A stretch of DNA of 64,000 nucleotides, from sequence record OR525702.1; one strand, written 5' to 3'. The translations under genes and the position numbers were made by a program. Under the pieces are notes generated by a model, which saw only the letters and a list, made by a program, of their open reading frames with translations, was not told the DNA's origin and did no database searches. The DNA is from Escherichia phage vB-Eco-KMB23. Each line of letters opens with the position of its first letter. Within the stretch, counting starts at the first letter, position 1. Positions 23,756 through 28,530 of the stretch are shown here, in pieces.

Positions 23756-23759
23756 CAAC

Positions 23760-23777
23760 GGGGACCTTTCGGTCCCC
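23760..23777. terminator. bidirectional hairpin between gene 54 and the converging minus-strand ORF
   Basis: GGGGACC-tttc-GGTCCCC. Confidence 0.7.
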
Positions 23778-23783
23778 ATATTT

Positions 23784-24074
23784 TTATTTGCGGAATGAAA
23801 TGAAAGCAGAAACTGAAGCAACTAAACTATCTTCAATATAAACTTCAATTTTTACCGGAGCTTCTGACTCAAATTTACCTGTTACTACACCTTGGAAAAT
23901 ACTTTCAGTTTGTTCTGGCTTTGAAAAATTTTCAGAAGGAAAAATTCCGAACTTTTTATCTGTTCCAAAAATTTTAATAAATTCATCGTAAACTGCTTCA
24001 TTAAAAGCATTATCAACAGGAATAACGCCTTCAACTACAAGTTCTTGACCTAAAAAGCGTAAAGAAGATTTCAT
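23784..24074 (-). CDS. hypothetical protein (alt.-3 position)
   Basis: 96-aa ORF, ATG start with SD GAGGA. Confidence 0.6.
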   Translation of the reverse strand: MKSSLRFLGQELVVEGVIPVDNAFNEAVYDEFIKIFGTDKKFGIFPSENFSKPEQTESIFQGVVTGKFESEAPVKIEVYIEDSLVASVSAFISFRK

Positions 24075-24081
24075 TTTGTGT

Positions 24082-24135
24082 TCCTCATGTTATGTCAGTA
24101 AGACTACTATAACACAACACGAGGGACTTGTAAAC
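24082..24135 (-). promoter_or_regulatory. early sigma70-type promoter cassette, copy A (identical to 39407..39460)
   Basis: Minus strand reads GTTTAC, 17 nt, TTATAGT with upstream TG, then SD GAGGA and ATG of the 96-aa ORF. Confidence 0.6.
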
Positions 24136-26192
24136 TACATTTTGAACTTTTTAGACATTCCGTTGATGTTAACCAAAGAAGCTAAGATTTGAGAAACTTC
24201 GTTTTCCTCTTCTTTTGATTCTTCTACAAGGAATTGATTAAATCCAGTCATTGGACGAACTTCACCAGTTTCCATTAAATGGTCGCCATCATATACTGAT
24301 TCTTCTAATTGTTCAGAAGGAGGAACGATTGTGCCTTCGATTAAATACTTGTTATAAGCAGTTTCTTTCATCATGTACGTGCTCACTTTATTAATCTTCA
24401 GCAAAATTCCACGCGGTAAAATAACTTCAGCTTCTGATGGAAATCCTGATAAATGACCTGGAACGATAACTTTGATTCGCTCAGCCCCTTTAATTACCAT
24501 ACCTACGCTAGTTTCAGCATCTTCATTAGCATATGCGGAATGACTACCCATATGCATTAAATCTTCAGCATCAACTGAACCTTCTCCTTCACCAGAAAAT
24601 ACTGCACTGGAATCATCTAAAGCCATATAGTTTTTACCATACTCACCGAAGATATTTGGTTTAAGCGATGTTGATACGAAGTTCTTGAAATAGAACATTT
24701 TATTTTCAATATTATGGCGTAAAGTTTTAAAAGTAACTTCTTGTCCACGATAAAGCGTAGTTCCTGGAGGAAGAACTGATCCTTTGGCGAATGCAGAATC
24801 CAGCGTCTCGATGTGTTTAATAGCTCGTTCCATGTATTCTTCACGAGTAGAATCTGGTTTACCCAAGAGGAACGAGTTCATTTCAACATATGAATCTGCA
24901 CAATAATCTTCAATTACATCGGACTCAGCCTGAGTTAATCCTTTTGGGGGTACTTCAGTACTTGCATATTCATACGCTTGAGAAGCAGACTCATTAATCA
25001 ATTTATAAATGCCATTCATGACAAATTGAATAATAGCTACCTTTTCATCTGGCGTGGCTTTAGAACCTTTAACTAAATCATTGACAATTTTCTTAATAAC
25101 ATCAAAGCTATTAGAAATATTAATGTCAGCAAGATCGCTCAAAATTTTATCGGTTTTATAATCAAAGAATTCTTTATTCTTTAAATATTCCTGAGAACCT
25201 TGATATGTTATATCGCTCTGTAATTTAATAGATGGATCACGTAAACGCGCATGGGCCAATGCAATATGATTTCGGAAGCTTTCTAGTTCATAATCGTTAG
25301 ATTTAAAACGAGAAGCACTCCTCATACCACCGATAGCTCCTTTGCTGAAGTTTGAACCAATCTGAATAACGCCAGAGTTCATTGGTCCTTCTGCTTTATA
25401 TACCGGAACTTTAGATTCAAACTCTTGATATTTCTTAGCGGCGAAGCTATCACCCTGAAGTGAAGCATCAACAGTAGAATATTGAGCTTGTGCTGCTAAT
25501 CGACGACTAATTTTAGTTTTCTGAATAACAGCTTGATCCGTGCGCTTATCATTTTCTAAAGCAATAGAAGCAGCAACAGCAACAGCTTTAGGAACAGCAT
25601 TACCTGTTTTAACATCTACATAAACATCACCAACCTTTGATTCAACTTTTGTGAATAACTCAGTTGAAATAGGAGGTACACCTGGAATGTCTTCTAAATT
25701 GGCATTTTTACGGTAAACCATAATATATGCATACTTTTTATCATAATCCCAGATTTCCTTTAAAAGAACATATCGACCTGCTCCTTTAGTACGTACTAAA
25801 CGGTCAGCAATAACTTGCATTTGACGAGCAGCGCCATTTGTTTTACTTTTTAGTACGCGGAATAGGCATGCGTCAATTTTATACTGTTTCATTGTTTGAA
25901 GAGCAGTATCAAAAACCGCATTAATGACACCAATTGGATTTCCACCCAAGTTTTTAAGTTTAACTAATGATAGTTTCTCATTAACACCTATCATTACGAT
26001 ATGCATCATTTTATCGCCTGGCTTAACGTTTTTATTTGTATCACCGCCAGAGGTGTATGTACAAAATCTAAATCCAGGAAGCACGCTTTCTTCACCAGCT
26101 TGAATAGCAAAAATTTGAGGTATTTTATGCTTAGGATTTAAGTTAACAACCGGCGCCGAAGCGCCGTCAAATAATTCTGTAATAAGTTCCAT
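24135..26192 (-). CDS. Alt-family ADP-ribosyltransferase paralog
   Basis: 685 aa; N-terminus MELITELFD shared with Alt; C-terminal YRG, VSTS and EAEVILPRG motifs (R-S-E ART signature). Confidence 0.8.
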   Translation of the reverse strand: MELITELFDGASAPVVNLNPKHKIPQIFAIQAGEESVLPGFRFCTYTSGGDTNKNVKPGDKMMHIVMIGVNEKLSLVKLKNLGGNPIGVINAVFDTALQTMKQYKIDACLFRVLKSKTNGAARQMQVIADRLVRTKGAGRYVLLKEIWDYDKKYAYIMVYRKNANLEDIPGVPPISTELFTKVESKVGDVYVDVKTGNAVPKAVAVAASIALENDKRTDQAVIQKTKISRRLAAQAQYSTVDASLQGDSFAAKKYQEFESKVPVYKAEGPMNSGVIQIGSNFSKGAIGGMRSASRFKSNDYELESFRNHIALAHARLRDPSIKLQSDITYQGSQEYLKNKEFFDYKTDKILSDLADINISNSFDVIKKIVNDLVKGSKATPDEKVAIIQFVMNGIYKLINESASQAYEYASTEVPPKGLTQAESDVIEDYCADSYVEMNSFLLGKPDSTREEYMERAIKHIETLDSAFAKGSVLPPGTTLYRGQEVTFKTLRHNIENKMFYFKNFVSTSLKPNIFGEYGKNYMALDDSSAVFSGEGEGSVDAEDLMHMGSHSAYANEDAETSVGMVIKGAERIKVIVPGHLSGFPSEAEVILPRGILLKINKVSTYMMKETAYNKYLIEGTIVPPSEQLEESVYDGDHLMETGEVRPMTGFNQFLVEESKEEENEVSQILASLVNINGMSKKFKM

Positions 26193-26195
26193 GAT

Positions 26196-28289
26196 TTATC
26201 CTTGAACGAACTTGTAAGGCATGTTTGTAATATCTATGCAAGACGCAATAATTCCAAGAGATGATTCTACTTTTTGTTTAACATTTGATGAAACAAATGA
26301 TGCAAAATCAACTCTGTCTTCTATTTCAATATCACCTGTCATTGCAACTACTTCACCAGTTTCCATTAGACGATCACCGTCATAAATTACTGATTCGGTG
26401 AGTTCTTCCGTAGTCATAACTTCAGCTTGAATGAGTTTTGTATTATTAGATGTTGTTCCGTCATTATTAGAAGCATCAGTTATTTTATTAACTTTGACCA
26501 TCAATCCGCGTGGTAGAATAACTTCAGCTTCTGTTGCTATTCCGAGACTTCCTGGATATACAACATTAACTTTATGAGCTCCATCAATTGCCCATCCTAT
26601 TTGAACTTTAACGTATTCAGGATTTTCTTTATACGCTCTTATTTCGTTTGGATTAATAGTTATTCCTTCTTCATTTTTATCAACTGTCAATTCATTACGA
26701 GCTTCTGGTTCTAAAAGACCAATACCAGCATGTGTAATTCCAAAACGTCCAAAAATGATAGGAGTTAAAGAAGTAGATACAAAATTTCTGAAATAGAATA
26801 CTTTATTTTTAACTAGTGCTTCGTATATAGGAGCAGTCATACTTTGAGCACGATAAACTGTAATGCCTTCTGGTATACGGTCACCATTTTCAAAAGCTGA
26901 ATCTAAGTTATTTATAGCAGATTCAATTTCTTTTTCACTCATTACATCATATCGTTCTGGATTGTAGCGTCCTAAAAGAAGATTATTGATGTCAGTATAT
27001 CCTGAACCACAATACTCTCTAATACCACGCTTTTGTGATGGAGTATATTTAGAACCATCACGAGCAATAGTAATATCAATCATTGGACCTGCACCAATTC
27101 CAGAAAAGCTATAAATCATTCGTTTGAGGAATTTAGTTTTTGCTGCGTTCCAGGAATTTTTAGTTATTTCTTCCCAGACTTCATCTGACTGCCCTTTACG
27201 AGTTTTATTATGTTTATCAAGCCAATTATCTTTATATTCTTCAAAGAATTGATTAACAGCTGCTGCGTATTTCTCTAAACATTTTATTGAAGTAGTTGGT
27301 TCATTTTTAATCGCATTAAGAATTACATCTTTAATTTTTTCAGAAACTTCATTAACCTCACTTTTTGAAAAGAATTTATAGTCATAATGAAGTTCATCTG
27401 CAGTTCCTTCAGCAATAATTTTTGCTGCTTTAGTTTTAGAAGCCAATGAATTAATTCCAAGTTTCATTTCTTCTGCTTCGGGAATTAAAGGAGCGGTAGC
27501 AGGTTTATTGAAATTAGCTGCGGTAGATTCATACTTCTGGAATAATTCACTTTCAAATCTAGAAGATTCTAATGATTGACTTTGTGCAATTGCTCTACGG
27601 GAAATTTTAACTTTAACGATTACAGCTTGGTCAGAACGTTTATCATTTTCTTGCGCAATAGATGCAGCAATTGCCTCATTTTTAGTTACTTGAGCTCCAG
27701 TATCTTTATTGATATAAACATCACCGACCTTCGATTCAACTTTAGTAAAGAGCTCGGTACTAATTTCCGGAACTCCTGGAATGTCTTCTAGTGATACATT
27801 TTTGCGATGTATAAGAATATATGCATACTTTTTATCGTAATCCCAGAGTTCCTTAAGAAGGACGTATCTGCCACCTGAACGACTGCGGATAAGTCTATCA
27901 GCAATAAGTTGAATTTGACGAGCTTGACCAGCAGTTTTAGACTTAAGAATACGGAGCATACAGGCATCAATTTTATACTGACGCATCGTCTGCATCGCAA
28001 CAGTAAAAACTGAATTGATGTAATTAATTGGGCTTGGACCGAGACCTTTTAATTTAGCAATTGAACCTTTAGCAGTTAATGTAAAAGGAACAATATGCAT
28101 CATTTTATCGCCCATCTTTAAATCGCGATTAGTATCACCTCCAGATGTATAGGTACATAAACGAAAGCCTGGTTGTTCAATTGCGTCATCAACATGAACT
28201 GAAAAAATTTGTGGTATTTTCTTCTTTGGATTTAAGTTTGTAATCGGAAGAGTAGTATCTTCGTCAAATAATTCTGTAATGAGTTCCAT
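26196..28289 (-). CDS. alt: ADP-ribosyltransferase Alt
   Basis: About 697 aa; MELITELFDEDTTLPITNL matches T4 Alt; ART motifs present; second ATG chosen for SD spacing. Confidence 0.85.
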   Translation of the reverse strand: MELITELFDEDTTLPITNLNPKKKIPQIFSVHVDDAIEQPGFRLCTYTSGGDTNRDLKMGDKMMHIVPFTLTAKGSIAKLKGLGPSPINYINSVFTVAMQTMRQYKIDACMLRILKSKTAGQARQIQLIADRLIRSRSGGRYVLLKELWDYDKKYAYILIHRKNVSLEDIPGVPEISTELFTKVESKVGDVYINKDTGAQVTKNEAIAASIAQENDKRSDQAVIVKVKISRRAIAQSQSLESSRFESELFQKYESTAANFNKPATAPLIPEAEEMKLGINSLASKTKAAKIIAEGTADELHYDYKFFSKSEVNEVSEKIKDVILNAIKNEPTTSIKCLEKYAAAVNQFFEEYKDNWLDKHNKTRKGQSDEVWEEITKNSWNAAKTKFLKRMIYSFSGIGAGPMIDITIARDGSKYTPSQKRGIREYCGSGYTDINNLLLGRYNPERYDVMSEKEIESAINNLDSAFENGDRIPEGITVYRAQSMTAPIYEALVKNKVFYFRNFVSTSLTPIIFGRFGITHAGIGLLEPEARNELTVDKNEEGITINPNEIRAYKENPEYVKVQIGWAIDGAHKVNVVYPGSLGIATEAEVILPRGLMVKVNKITDASNNDGTTSNNTKLIQAEVMTTEELTESVIYDGDRLMETGEVVAMTGDIEIEDRVDFASFVSSNVKQKVESSLGIIASCIDITNMPYKFVQG

Positions 28290-28312
28290 CATATCCTCTC
28301 TAGTGTTTATTC

Positions 28313-28320
28313 TATTTATA
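28313..28320 (-). promoter_or_regulatory. late promoter motif TATAAATA for alt
   Basis: Reverse complement of tatttata about 20 bp upstream of alt start. Confidence 0.6.
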
Positions 28321-28325
28321 AAATT

Positions 28326-28343
28326 AAAGGCCCGAAGGCCTTT
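28326..28343 (-). terminator. hairpin between the 62-aa ORF and alt
   Basis: AAAGGCC-cgaa-GGCCTTT. Confidence 0.55.
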
Positions 28344-28530
28344 AATAATCTATTGGTAAGAGAGTACGATATATTTCAAACTTTGGACCTTTTTCATAAG
28401 CATCAAATGTTTCTGTGAATTTATTATAAGCATATGCATCTATAAATTCAATCATAATTTGTGATACAGAAGTAGAAACATCTCCACCTTCTTTTTGAGC
28501 AACGACAATTGTTTCTAAGTAAGCTTTCAT
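28342..28530 (-). CDS. hypothetical small protein
   Basis: 62-aa ORF, ATG start overlapping gene 30 stop. Confidence 0.5.
   Translation of the reverse strand: MKAYLETIVVAQKEGGDVSTSVSQIMIEFIDAYAYNKFTETFDAYEKGPKFEIYRTLLPIDY

Follow-up and report, generated by a model that had tools for sequence, protein, structure and literature searches.

Each mature head of bacteriophage T4 carries ~40 copies of the ADP-ribosyltransferase Alt, which are injected with the DNA. In the host, Alt ADP-ribosylates RNA polymerase alpha, MazF and other proteins in an NAD+-dependent manner. The alt transcript and protein appear late in infection (PMC9697503), and the precursor, with the N-terminus MELITE, is cut by the prohead protease gp21 at ITE-6 and LTE-619 (PMC5694885). 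Duplications of Alt have been published (Nolan 2006, PMC1524935; Jin 2014, PMC4177764), and the gene pair described below is itself already known, being annotated in ~400 relatives; it is functionally uncharacterized.

Layout of the alt locus

We analysed a 64,000-nt stretch of Escherichia phage vB-Eco-KMB23 (OR525702.1), hereafter the window. A preliminary description had reported two intact, full-length Alt-family genes in tandem, and both ORFs lie where it had put them, each matching phrog_802 from end to end (residues 2–674 of 674; E = 5e-272 and 9e-256). Since both are on the minus strand, the copy that it called upstream is the higher-coordinate one; we refer to this copy as Alt-A and to the downstream copy as Alt-B. 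The features of the locus, in the direction of transcription, are as follows.

28323–28346 (−): GC-rich hairpin, AUUAAAGGCC-UUCG-GGCCUUUAAU, overlapping the alt.1 stop codon, directly 5′ of the late promoter
28313–28320 (−): T4-type late promoter motif TATAAATA, exact match, ~20 nt 5′ of the Alt-A start codon
28295–28300 (−): Shine-Dalgarno GAGAGG for Alt-A, read from the sequence
26196–28289 (−): Alt-A, 697 aa, positional ortholog of T4 alt, T2/T6-type allele
27576–28289 (−): Alt-A N-domain, aa 1–238
27060–27575 (−): Alt-A middle, aa 239–410
26394–27059 (−): Alt-A ART domain, aa 411–632, with R480, S505-T-S507 and E587-A-E589
26199–26393 (−): Alt-A C-propeptide, aa 633–697
26199–26203 (−): Shine-Dalgarno AAGGA for Alt-B, within the final Alt-A codons, 6 nt 5′ of the ATG
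24135–26192 (−): Alt-B ('Alt2' in the Bas37 annotation), 685 aa
25482–26192 (−): Alt-B N-domain, aa 1–237
24948–25481 (−): Alt-B helical middle, aa 238–415
24300–24947 (−): Alt-B ART domain, aa 416–631, with R482, S507-T-S509 and E587-A-E589
24138–24299 (−): Alt-B C-propeptide, aa 632–685
23784–24074 (−): alt.-3 ortholog, 96 aa, phrog_1739; synteny with T4, T2 and T6
23758–23779 (both strands): bidirectional intrinsic terminator between the convergent alt.-3 and gp54 units

The ORF map places the pair between gene 30/alt.1 and alt.-3/gene 54, in synteny with T4, T2 and T6. The late promoter that had been noted ahead of the upstream copy is the TATAAATA motif listed above. The hairpin next to it folds as RNA with −13.5 kcal/mol (z = −3.9), a stability equalled by 0 of 200 shuffles, and is likely to act as a terminator or insulator against upstream early and middle transcription. 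The Alt-A ORF (26196–28292) encodes 698 aa from its first ATG and 697 aa from the second, and GenBank records disagree on the length of the gene (2094 versus 2097 nt). GAGAGG precedes the second ATG (28289) by 5 nt but the first (28292) by just 2 nt, so we consider the second, which gives MELITE, the likelier start.

Only 3 nt separate the Alt-A stop codon from the Alt-B start, a terminator scan of the locus found no terminator between the two genes, and Alt-B lacks its own late promoter. The sole internal TATAAATA (26909–26916) is missing from other phages that retain Alt-B, suggesting that Alt-B expression depends on read-through. The downstream terminator, scanned on both strands, has a 7–9 bp stem with 6 GC pairs, and alt.-3 is presumed to be the final gene before it. 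Thus, the hairpin, TATAAATA, Alt-A, Alt-B, alt.-3 and the terminator would form one late, co-transcribed unit.

Domains and catalytic residues of Alt-A and Alt-B

As the preliminary description had pointed out, both proteins begin with MELITELFD and the downstream copy is a diverged paralog. The two are 41% identical overall (BLASTP E = 5e-160, far above chance), and identity differs by domain: 68% in the N-domain, 19% in the middle and 34% in the ART domain. Each protein consists of four parts, namely a ~240-aa N-domain, a helical middle, an ART domain and a C-terminal propeptide of ~55–65 aa. A profile of the N-domain matched only 73 clusters among 1.84 billion representatives, always at residues ~1–245. 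Pfam searches with the isolated N-domains found no family, even at E ≤ 10, and searches with full-length Alt-A and Alt-B found none besides PF03496; PF26846 (Tevenvirinae_ADPRT) is precomputed on the orthologous clusters.

PF03496 (ADPrib_exo_Tox) scored 129 bits on Alt-A and 72.9 bits on Alt-B, against a gathering cut-off of 23.4 bits. The ART-like motifs reported earlier are present as VYRAQ in Alt-A and LYRGQ in Alt-B, with VSTSL and EAEVILPRG in both. When aligned with T4 Alt, ModA and ModB, R480, S505/S507 and E587/E589 of Alt-A and R482, S507/S509 and E587/E589 of Alt-B all fall on the R-S-E residues, such that neither copy has lost a catalytic position; these residues are invariant in 19 homologs and in 7 phages. 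The ART domain in the AF2 model of Alt-B (pLDDT 76) matches the Vis, C3bot, Vip2, CDTa and iota toxins (Foldseek probability 1.00, target TM ~0.6). Judging from these residues and folds, both proteins are most likely C3/Vip2-type arginine-specific (R-S-ExE) mono-ADP-ribosyltransferases.

Two other assignments were rejected. ModA/ModB-type early ARTs do not fit proteins of 685–697 aa with ~415 aa ahead of the ART domain and a late promoter, and a MuF-fused or polyvalent head-packaged ART does not fit the Pfam search, in which no MuF (Phage_Mu_F) domain was found. T4 Alt has likewise been set outside the polyvalent proteins by Iyer et al.

The upstream copy had been described as matching T4 Alt. 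It is the positional ortholog, but it is only 70–72% identical overall: the N-terminal 238 aa are 99% identical and the C-propeptide 93%, as against 32% in the middle and 67% in the ART domain. On this alignment, Alt-A and T4 Alt are different alleles in their middle and catalytic regions. Alt-B is 41% identical to T4 Alt overall; the ART domains are 36% identical and the middle regions 8%.

The T4 remnant and the maintenance of Alt-B

Whether reference T4 carries the same pair had been left open. It does not: its only trace of the second gene is alt.-1/alt.-2 (NP_049810, NP_049809). This remnant is 97% identical at the nucleotide level to the initial 356 nt of Alt-B, and the corresponding families, phrog_23015 and phrog_15247, score far better on Alt-B than on Alt-A. 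Three positions in Alt-B bear on its origin.

26029–26033 (−): A5 run in Alt-B codons 54–55, with one A fewer in T4
25845–25853 (−): 9-bp direct repeat CTAAAAAGT, copy 1, at the 5′ boundary of a 1,691-bp segment absent in T4
24146–24154 (−): CTAAAAAGT, copy 2, in the final Alt-B codons, at the 3′ boundary of the T4 deletion

Loss of one A in T4 shifts the frame, which produces the stop at the end of alt.-1 and the restart that opens alt.-2. The two BLAST segments of the T4 remnant against the window overlap by exactly the 9 nt of CTAAAAAGT, and the C-terminus of T4 alt.-2, SSKCSLQVPRVVL*, is an out-of-frame reading from window position 24153 on. On this alignment evidence, T4 alt.-1/alt.-2 is what is left of Alt-B after the loss of 1 bp, which shifted the frame, and of 1,691 bp between 9-bp repeats, making reference T4 naturally null for Alt-B. 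The T4 annotation, in which these ORFs are an old duplication of the initial part of alt, was rejected; the far 3′ end of Alt-B survives in T4 as well, which shows internal deletion of a full-length paralog. The deletion junction is common to 91 phage records, field isolates included.

Alt-B orthologs with an intact interior and at least 90% identity were found in 401 phage records, among them T2 (BBC14817), T6 (AXN58232) and Bas37 (KarlGJung), where bas37_0032 is annotated as 'ADP-ribosyltransferase Alt2'. In 7 of 7 phages Alt-B has 0 stops, and dN/dS is 0.018–0.056 at dS 0.10–0.33. By domain, the values are 0.021 (N-domain), 0.068 (middle), 0.045 (ART) and 0.056 (C-propeptide); strong purifying selection acts on all domains of Alt-B. 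Within alleles of Alt-A, dN/dS is 0.014–0.12.

The Alt-B type extends beyond close relatives. In Dhakavirus E33, copy 3 of 3, which adjoins alt.-3, is of the Alt-B type (57% identity in the ART domain, 66% in the C-propeptide), and copy 2 is of the Alt-A type, with 95% identity in the ART domain and only 47% in the N-domain. N-domains cluster by phage genus (63–67% identity within a genome versus 42–47% between genera), whereas effector regions cluster by type across genera. The N-domain is conserved within a phage lineage and adjoins a fast-diverging helical middle.

A transposon screen is available for the 97% identical locus of Bas37 (HIDEN-SEQ preprint, Extended Data Table 7). Alt2 was hit at 116 of 164 TA sites and classed as 'Intermediate'; its mean count was 44.5, versus 203.6 for Alt, 169.7 for alt.-3 and 197.7 for alt.1, all three of which were classed non-essential. 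The authors of the screen left the Alt2 class without comment. Insertion bias, or truncated proteins with a dominant-negative effect, could explain this class instead of loss of function.

These data bear on two alternatives. If Alt-B were a redundant duplicate drifting to loss, with no distinct function, T4-type phages holding just a frameshifted, deleted remnant would be the expected outcome, and Alt can be dispensed with under laboratory conditions (PMC9026906). However, 401 copies are intact with dN/dS ~0.045 at dS up to 0.33, the Alt-B type is also kept at the matching position in Dhakavirus, and the screen placed Alt2 in the 'Intermediate' class. Moreover, Alt-A and Alt-B are not redundant copies, being only 19% and 34% identical in the middle and ART domains. 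This reading is disfavoured, and we consider it very improbable. A mainly structural or assembly role in the prohead core, or a role as a partner of Alt-A, with catalysis irrelevant or lost, would suit an N-domain that is the most constrained part of the protein, and Alt2 insertions that are under-represented on laboratory K-12, where Alt is dispensable. Such a role would not account for the strong constraint on the ART domain itself or the invariance of R482, S507, S509, E587 and E589, and T4 and 90 other records build heads without intact Alt-B. We regard it as quite unlikely, if somewhat less so than redundancy.

Proposed packaging of Alt-B and comparison with known systems

At the motif level, gp21 sites are predicted at ITE6 and LTE632 in Alt-A, and at ITE6 and LEE631 in Alt-B. 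Mapping sites in the same way on T4 Alt gives a mature form of 68.2 kDa, which is the published value. The P1 glutamates of Alt-B, E6 and E631, are invariant in the homolog alignment and in 7 phages, both sites lie in low-confidence, disordered segments of the AF2 model, and the propeptide core SVYDGDHLMETGEV is conserved. The gp21 prohead protease encoded in the window is identical to T4 gp21 at 211 of 212 positions (99%).

By analogy with T4 Alt, we propose that both precursors are built into the prohead core and cut by gp21, once after ITE6 and once after L-x-E near 631/632, giving Alt-A of ~70.1 kDa and Alt-B of ~69.2 kDa. The trimmed proteins would remain in the head and enter the host along with the DNA. 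There they would modify host proteins by ADP-ribosylation, with host NAD+ as substrate, before phage gene expression begins. Alternatively, Alt-B might be catalytically active but stay unpackaged, acting late in the producing cell, for example on host or phage proteins at the assembly stage or against late-acting defences. Expression from a late unit would fit, ModA and ModB are precedents for T-even ARTs acting without packaging (PMC5512222), and a literature search for virion proteomics or any text on 'Alt2' found nothing relevant, and so no proteomic proof of packaging. Nevertheless, Alt-B keeps a complete Alt N-domain (68% identity to that of Alt-A), both gp21 motifs with their invariant glutamates, and the SVYDGDHLMETGEV core; these elements are absent from ModA and ModB and would serve no evident purpose in a protein that stays out of the head. 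We consider late action in the producing cell unlikely, although it is the least improbable of the three alternatives.

We favour, with a probability of about 0.7, the reading that Alt-B is expressed late, packaged in the head and injected, and that it acts as a second arginine ADP-ribosyltransferase with targets of its own. The preliminary description had suggested a second injected ART of this kind. The suggestion is an inference with which everything tested is consistent, including the conserved gp21 motifs and N-domain, a 99% identical protease, low dN/dS and a diverged middle (19%). Alt-B (Alt2) would then represent an old effector lineage that is maintained separately, and its divergent middle and ART domains would confer a target set unlike that of Alt-A. 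The 91 records without intact Alt-B speak against the favoured reading to the extent that Alt-B is dispensable in some settings. More tentatively, and at slightly under even odds, Alt2 may be an ancient, independently maintained injected effector that has kept its position from Tequatrovirus to Dhakavirus, with a host target other than those of Alt and a fitness role even on E. coli K-12; a protein of defence or of the stress response is a plausible target. In that case, the classical T4 studies of 'alteration' were all carried out with a phage that naturally lacks an intact alt2. The Alt family would also represent modular delivery, in which a lineage-specific N-terminal head-targeting domain is combined with exchangeable effector cassettes, as suggested by the contrast between ART and N-domain identity for Alt-A and E33 copy 2.

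The closest described protein is T4 Alt (gpAlt, NP_049811; NAD+--arginine ADP-ribosyltransferase). It shares with the pair the locus, from alt.1/gene 30 to alt.-3/gene 54, the four-part architecture, MELITE, R-S-ExE, the ITE-6 and L-x-E motifs, and the late promoter. In our literature search, enzymology was found for T4 Alt only, and none for the 697-aa Alt-A allele or Alt-B. [quoted passage not shown] Alt variants are not interchangeable, and hence neither the targets nor the anti-Mokosh activity of T4 Alt can be assumed for Alt-A or Alt-B. ModA and ModB belong to the same R-S-E ART clade, with aligned catalytic residues, but are ~200 aa long, early and unpackaged, and lack the N-domain, middle domain and propeptides. 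The C3, Vip2, iota/CDTa, Vis and Certhrax toxins share the ART fold and R-S-ExE site (Foldseek E = 1e-7 to 1e-4) with only 15–19% sequence identity, and are secreted or enter as binary toxins rather than by injection from a phage head. Among other Tevenvirinae, tandem Alt paralogs adjoin baseplate genes in Dhakavirus E33, JS10, JS98 and Bp7 (three copies), Aeromonas phage 44RR, and Acinetobacter phages ZZ1 and Ac42, with copy number varying from 1 to 3. The Alt-B orthologs of Bas37, T2 and T6 show essentially no difference from the window, being 685 aa long and 97–99% identical, with matching position and 3-nt spacing, although T2 labels the product a 'hypothetical protein' and T6 an 'apparent insertion in alt.-2'.

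The tandem Alt genes and their transcription

A preliminary description of this DNA had proposed two tandem ORFs of the Alt family of ADP-ribosyltransferases (ARTs), and both were found back to back on the (-) strand at exactly the coordinates it gave, with every motif that it had quoted. We refer to the higher-coordinate copy, the positional ortholog of T4 alt, as Alt-A, and to the other as Alt-B.

26196-28289, (-) strand: Alt-A, ORF of 697 aa from the second ATG (698 aa if the start is at 28292)
24135-26192, (-) strand: Alt-B, ORF of 685 aa
23784-24074, (-) strand: ortholog of alt.-3, 96 aa, directly downstream of Alt-B

Alt-A and Alt-B alike far exceed the threshold of the Pfam model ADPrib_exo_Tox, and the two proteins share 41% identity (E = 5e-160). 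The genes flanking the pair (gp48 and gp54 on the (+) strand; alt.-3, Alt-B, Alt-A, alt.1 and the DNA ligase gene gp30, in that order, on the (-) strand) identify the phage as T4-like. Two in-frame ATGs stand at the start of Alt-A (28287-28292 (-)), and the length of the gene varies across GenBank, being 2094 nt in T2, T6 and vB_SsoM_113 and 2097 nt in Bas37; Shine-Dalgarno spacing and the ITE-6 numbering of T4 favour the second ATG.

The late promoter previously assigned to the upstream copy is present as TATAAATA at 28313-28320, ~20 nt 5′ of the start codon. It is abutted by a stable UUCG-loop hairpin (28323-28346 (-)) that overlaps the alt.1 stop codon and was not flagged by a simple terminator scan. 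Only 3 nt separate the Alt-A stop codon from the Alt-B ATG, and the Alt-B Shine-Dalgarno sequence, AAGGA, lies within the 3′ end of Alt-A. The terminator scan detected no terminator-like site between the two genes and a strong bidirectional terminator after alt.-3. On the simplest reading, one late transcript would span Alt-A, Alt-B and alt.-3; T4 alt RNA and protein are found late in infection (PMC9697503). A second TATAAATA, at 26909-26916 inside Alt-A, occurs only in the 697-aa allele. We rejected this motif as a required Alt-B promoter, since JoYop and Isf-Pm2, which lack it, keep Alt-B intact.

The interior of Alt-B is present at full length in 401 phage records, with 90-99.6% nucleotide identity; tblastn identities are bimodal: 401 records lie at ≥90%, and all others at <60%. 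The combination of a 697-aa and a 685-aa gene occurs in both T2 and T6, existing labels for the pair read 'Alt-like RNA polymerase ADP-ribosyltransferase (x2)' or alt_1/alt_2, and the names 'Alt' and 'Alt2' are in use for the genes of BASEL phage Bas37 (KarlGJung). Tandem alt duplications have been described for T4 alt.-1/alt.-2, 44RR and RB49 (Nolan et al. 2006, PMC1524935), and for ZZ1, Ac42, JS98 and Bp7 (Jin et al. 2014, PMC4177764). Given these records, annotations and published duplications, we conclude that the pair is real but already known; the preliminary observation was correct, and its interpretation as a second injected enzyme with a target of its own reasonable. Separately, records labelled Staphylococcus phage SAJK-IND and Pseudomonas phages vB_PSGBLB0006 and PsgM02F (H148, H153, H118 and H129) hold T4-like sequences, including a gp21 (prohead protease) 100% identical to that of the window; their host labels look doubtful, possibly reflecting contamination or mislabelling.

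Constraint on Alt-B and its predicted packaging

We compared Alt-B among seven phages (the window phage, T2, T6, vB_SsoM_113, JoYop, RB18 and Isf-Pm2). There were no internal stops, protein identity was 96.8-99.6%, and dN/dS was 0.018-0.056 with dS reaching 0.33. Values for the individual domains were 0.021 (N-domain), 0.068 (middle), 0.045 (ART) and 0.056 (C-propeptide), and thus constraint acts on every domain of the protein. In the alignment that the preliminary description had proposed as a check, Alt-B residues R482, S507-T-S509 and E587-A-E589 line up with the catalytic residues of T4 Alt, ModA and ModB; none has been lost, and all are invariant in 19 diverse homologs. An AlphaFold2 model of Alt-B (mean pLDDT 76) comprises an alpha/beta N-domain (~12-225), a helical middle (~250-410) and an ART domain (~420-625), the last matching Vis, C3, Vip2, CDTa and iota toxins with a Foldseek probability of 1.00. 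Sequence searches of the PDB with Alt-B and with its N-domain found no relative, and no NCBIfam model matched.

The Bas37 locus, which is 97.3% identical to the window, has been covered by HIDEN-SEQ, a transposon-insertion screen (bioRxiv 10.1101/2025.11.20.689424). In that screen, Alt2 (bas37_0032) was hit at 116/164 TA sites and classed as 'Intermediate' (Extended Data Table 7), whereas Alt (164/179 sites), alt.-3 and alt.1 were all 'Non-essential'; in the K-12 control, the count averaged 44.5 for Alt2, compared with 203.6 for Alt, 169.7 for alt.-3 and 197.7 for alt.1 (Extended Data Table 7). The class of Alt2 passes without comment from the authors of the screen. These values are consistent with a contribution of Alt2 to fitness, although dominant-negative truncations or insertion bias may also account for the low count. 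One resampling sheet of the same screen lists bas37_0031, the alt.-3 gene, with a log2FC of -2.70 (adjusted p = 0.02).

About 40 copies of T4 Alt are packaged in the prohead core, and gp21 cleaves the protein after ITE-6 and LTE-619 to give a mature form of 68.2 kDa (PMC5694885, PMC9026906). The candidate gp21 sites are ITE6 and LTE632 in Alt-A, and ITE6 and LEE631 in Alt-B. Across the Alt family, the P1 glutamates of both sites and the SVYDGD..METGE block that follows are invariant. Both Alt-B sites fall in low-confidence segments of the model, which are presumably flexible. The same mapping applied to T4 Alt returns the published 68.2 kDa, and it predicts masses of 70.1 and 69.2 kDa for mature Alt-A and Alt-B, respectively. 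The window gp21 is identical to T4 gp21 at 211/212 positions, and the N-domain is the best-kept region between Alt-A and Alt-B (68% identity, versus 19% for the middle and 34% for the ART domain). These sequence features are those expected of a second head-packaged enzyme, and we predict that Alt-B is packaged. A literature search on virion proteomics of the second copy, 'Alt2' and T2/T6-specific ADP-ribosylation returned nothing relevant.

Alleles and exchangeable modules

Alt-A is dimorphic in Tequatrovirus: a 697-aa type is found in the window, T2, T6 and RB18, and a 682/684-aa T4 type in T4, JoYop and Isf-Pm2. The alleles are near-identical at both ends but only 72% identical overall, such that the earlier statement that the upstream copy matches T4 Alt holds for the ends and not for the whole protein, the window carrying the other allele. 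Full-length Alt-B is found alongside each allele. T4 Alt is required to escape Mokosh type I, and Bas37 Alt, which is of the Alt-A type, is no substitute (bioRxiv 10.1101/2025.11.20.689424); hence, the Alt alleles are functionally distinct. For the neighbouring T4 alt.-3, escape from CmdTAC through C-terminal extension mutations has been reported (PMC11618068).

Dhakavirus E33 has three Alt copies in tandem. N-domains cluster by phage genus (63-67% identity among the copies of one genome, 42-47% when genera are compared), whereas effector regions cluster by type across genera. Alt-A (697 aa; window 26394-27575 (-)) and E33 copy 2 (locus L010 1916-3997) share 95% identity in the ART domain and only 47% in the N-domain, a contrast that points to a recent exchange of effector modules between genera. 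Alt-B and E33 copy 3, each the last copy and adjoining alt.-3, share 57% (ART) and 66% (C-propeptide). From this modular arrangement, we suggest that a delivery domain adapted to each lineage carries exchangeable effector cassettes, of which Alt-B would be an old, separately kept one.

An exhaustive profile search of 1.84 billion representatives recovered the N-domain in only 73 clusters, always at the N-terminus, and most of the odd-length members that we scanned retain an ART domain. The N-domain sequence is therefore almost confined to proteins of Alt architecture, and we rejected the idea of a sequence module shared widely with other effectors. At the fold level, the N-domain is similar to the N-terminal portions of some large, uncharacterized proteins in other myoviruses, with some matches in proteins annotated as Zeta-toxin, ParB or deaminase, and weakly resembles GNAT-like alpha/beta folds; sequence searches with the N-domain gave no support for the GNAT resemblance, and we treat both resemblances as leads only.

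Only a few proteins (P0182, of 1142 aa, P0183, P0180 and P0187) join an Alt-type N-domain to a remainder without a recognizable ART or other Pfam domain, and could carry non-ART cargo on the Alt delivery domain. Three metagenomic proteins (P0004, P0006 and P0007; locus L012 4001-6061), 88-92% identical to Alt-B, combine an Alt-A N-terminus with an Alt-B body, with three distinct crossover points within the N-domain. They could be unequal-crossover hybrids that left a single Alt gene, or they could be assembly chimeras, because the one contig examined, that of P0004, stops 29 nt past the gene; for this reason we set the natural hybrids aside.

The Alt-B remnant in T4

The preliminary description had asked whether reference T4 carries the same pair. 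It does not: in T4 (NC_000866), alt (682 aa) is followed only by the short ORFs alt.-1 (61 aa) and alt.-2 (67 aa), whose products align, with few substitutions, to residues 1 to ~115 of Alt-B. The remnant DNA matches the opening 356 nt of Alt-B at 97% identity and carries two lesions. In the first, an A5 run (window 26029-26033) has lost one A, a frameshift that gives rise to the stop of alt.-1 and the restart at alt.-2. The second is a 1,691-bp deletion with each end in a copy of CTAAAAAGT, at window 25845-25853 and 24146-24154. The last codons of Alt-B and its stop codon, read in another frame, account for the odd C-terminus of alt.-2. From these ends and lesions, we conclude that the T4 state arose when an internal part of a full-length gene was deleted. 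An uninterrupted deletion junction of the T4 type is present in 91 phage records, field isolates among them.

T4 is almost the only system in which phage-delivered ADP-ribosylation has been studied, yet it represents a minority genotype (91 versus 401 records). Alt2 of T2, T6 or Bas37 is a possible route to a new host target or anti-defence function and, given the allele difference against Mokosh type I and the 'Intermediate' class of Alt2, its targeted study could be fruitful. Such work would also mend the database notes. The T4 record describes 'an old duplication of the first part of alt', which is contradicted by an origin through internal deletion, and the T6 record describes the full gene as an 'apparent insertion in alt.-2', whereas it is T4 that bears a deletion. 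The main value of the finding lies in the reminder that the phage used as the model for ADP-ribosylation, T4, has lost Alt2 through a natural deletion.
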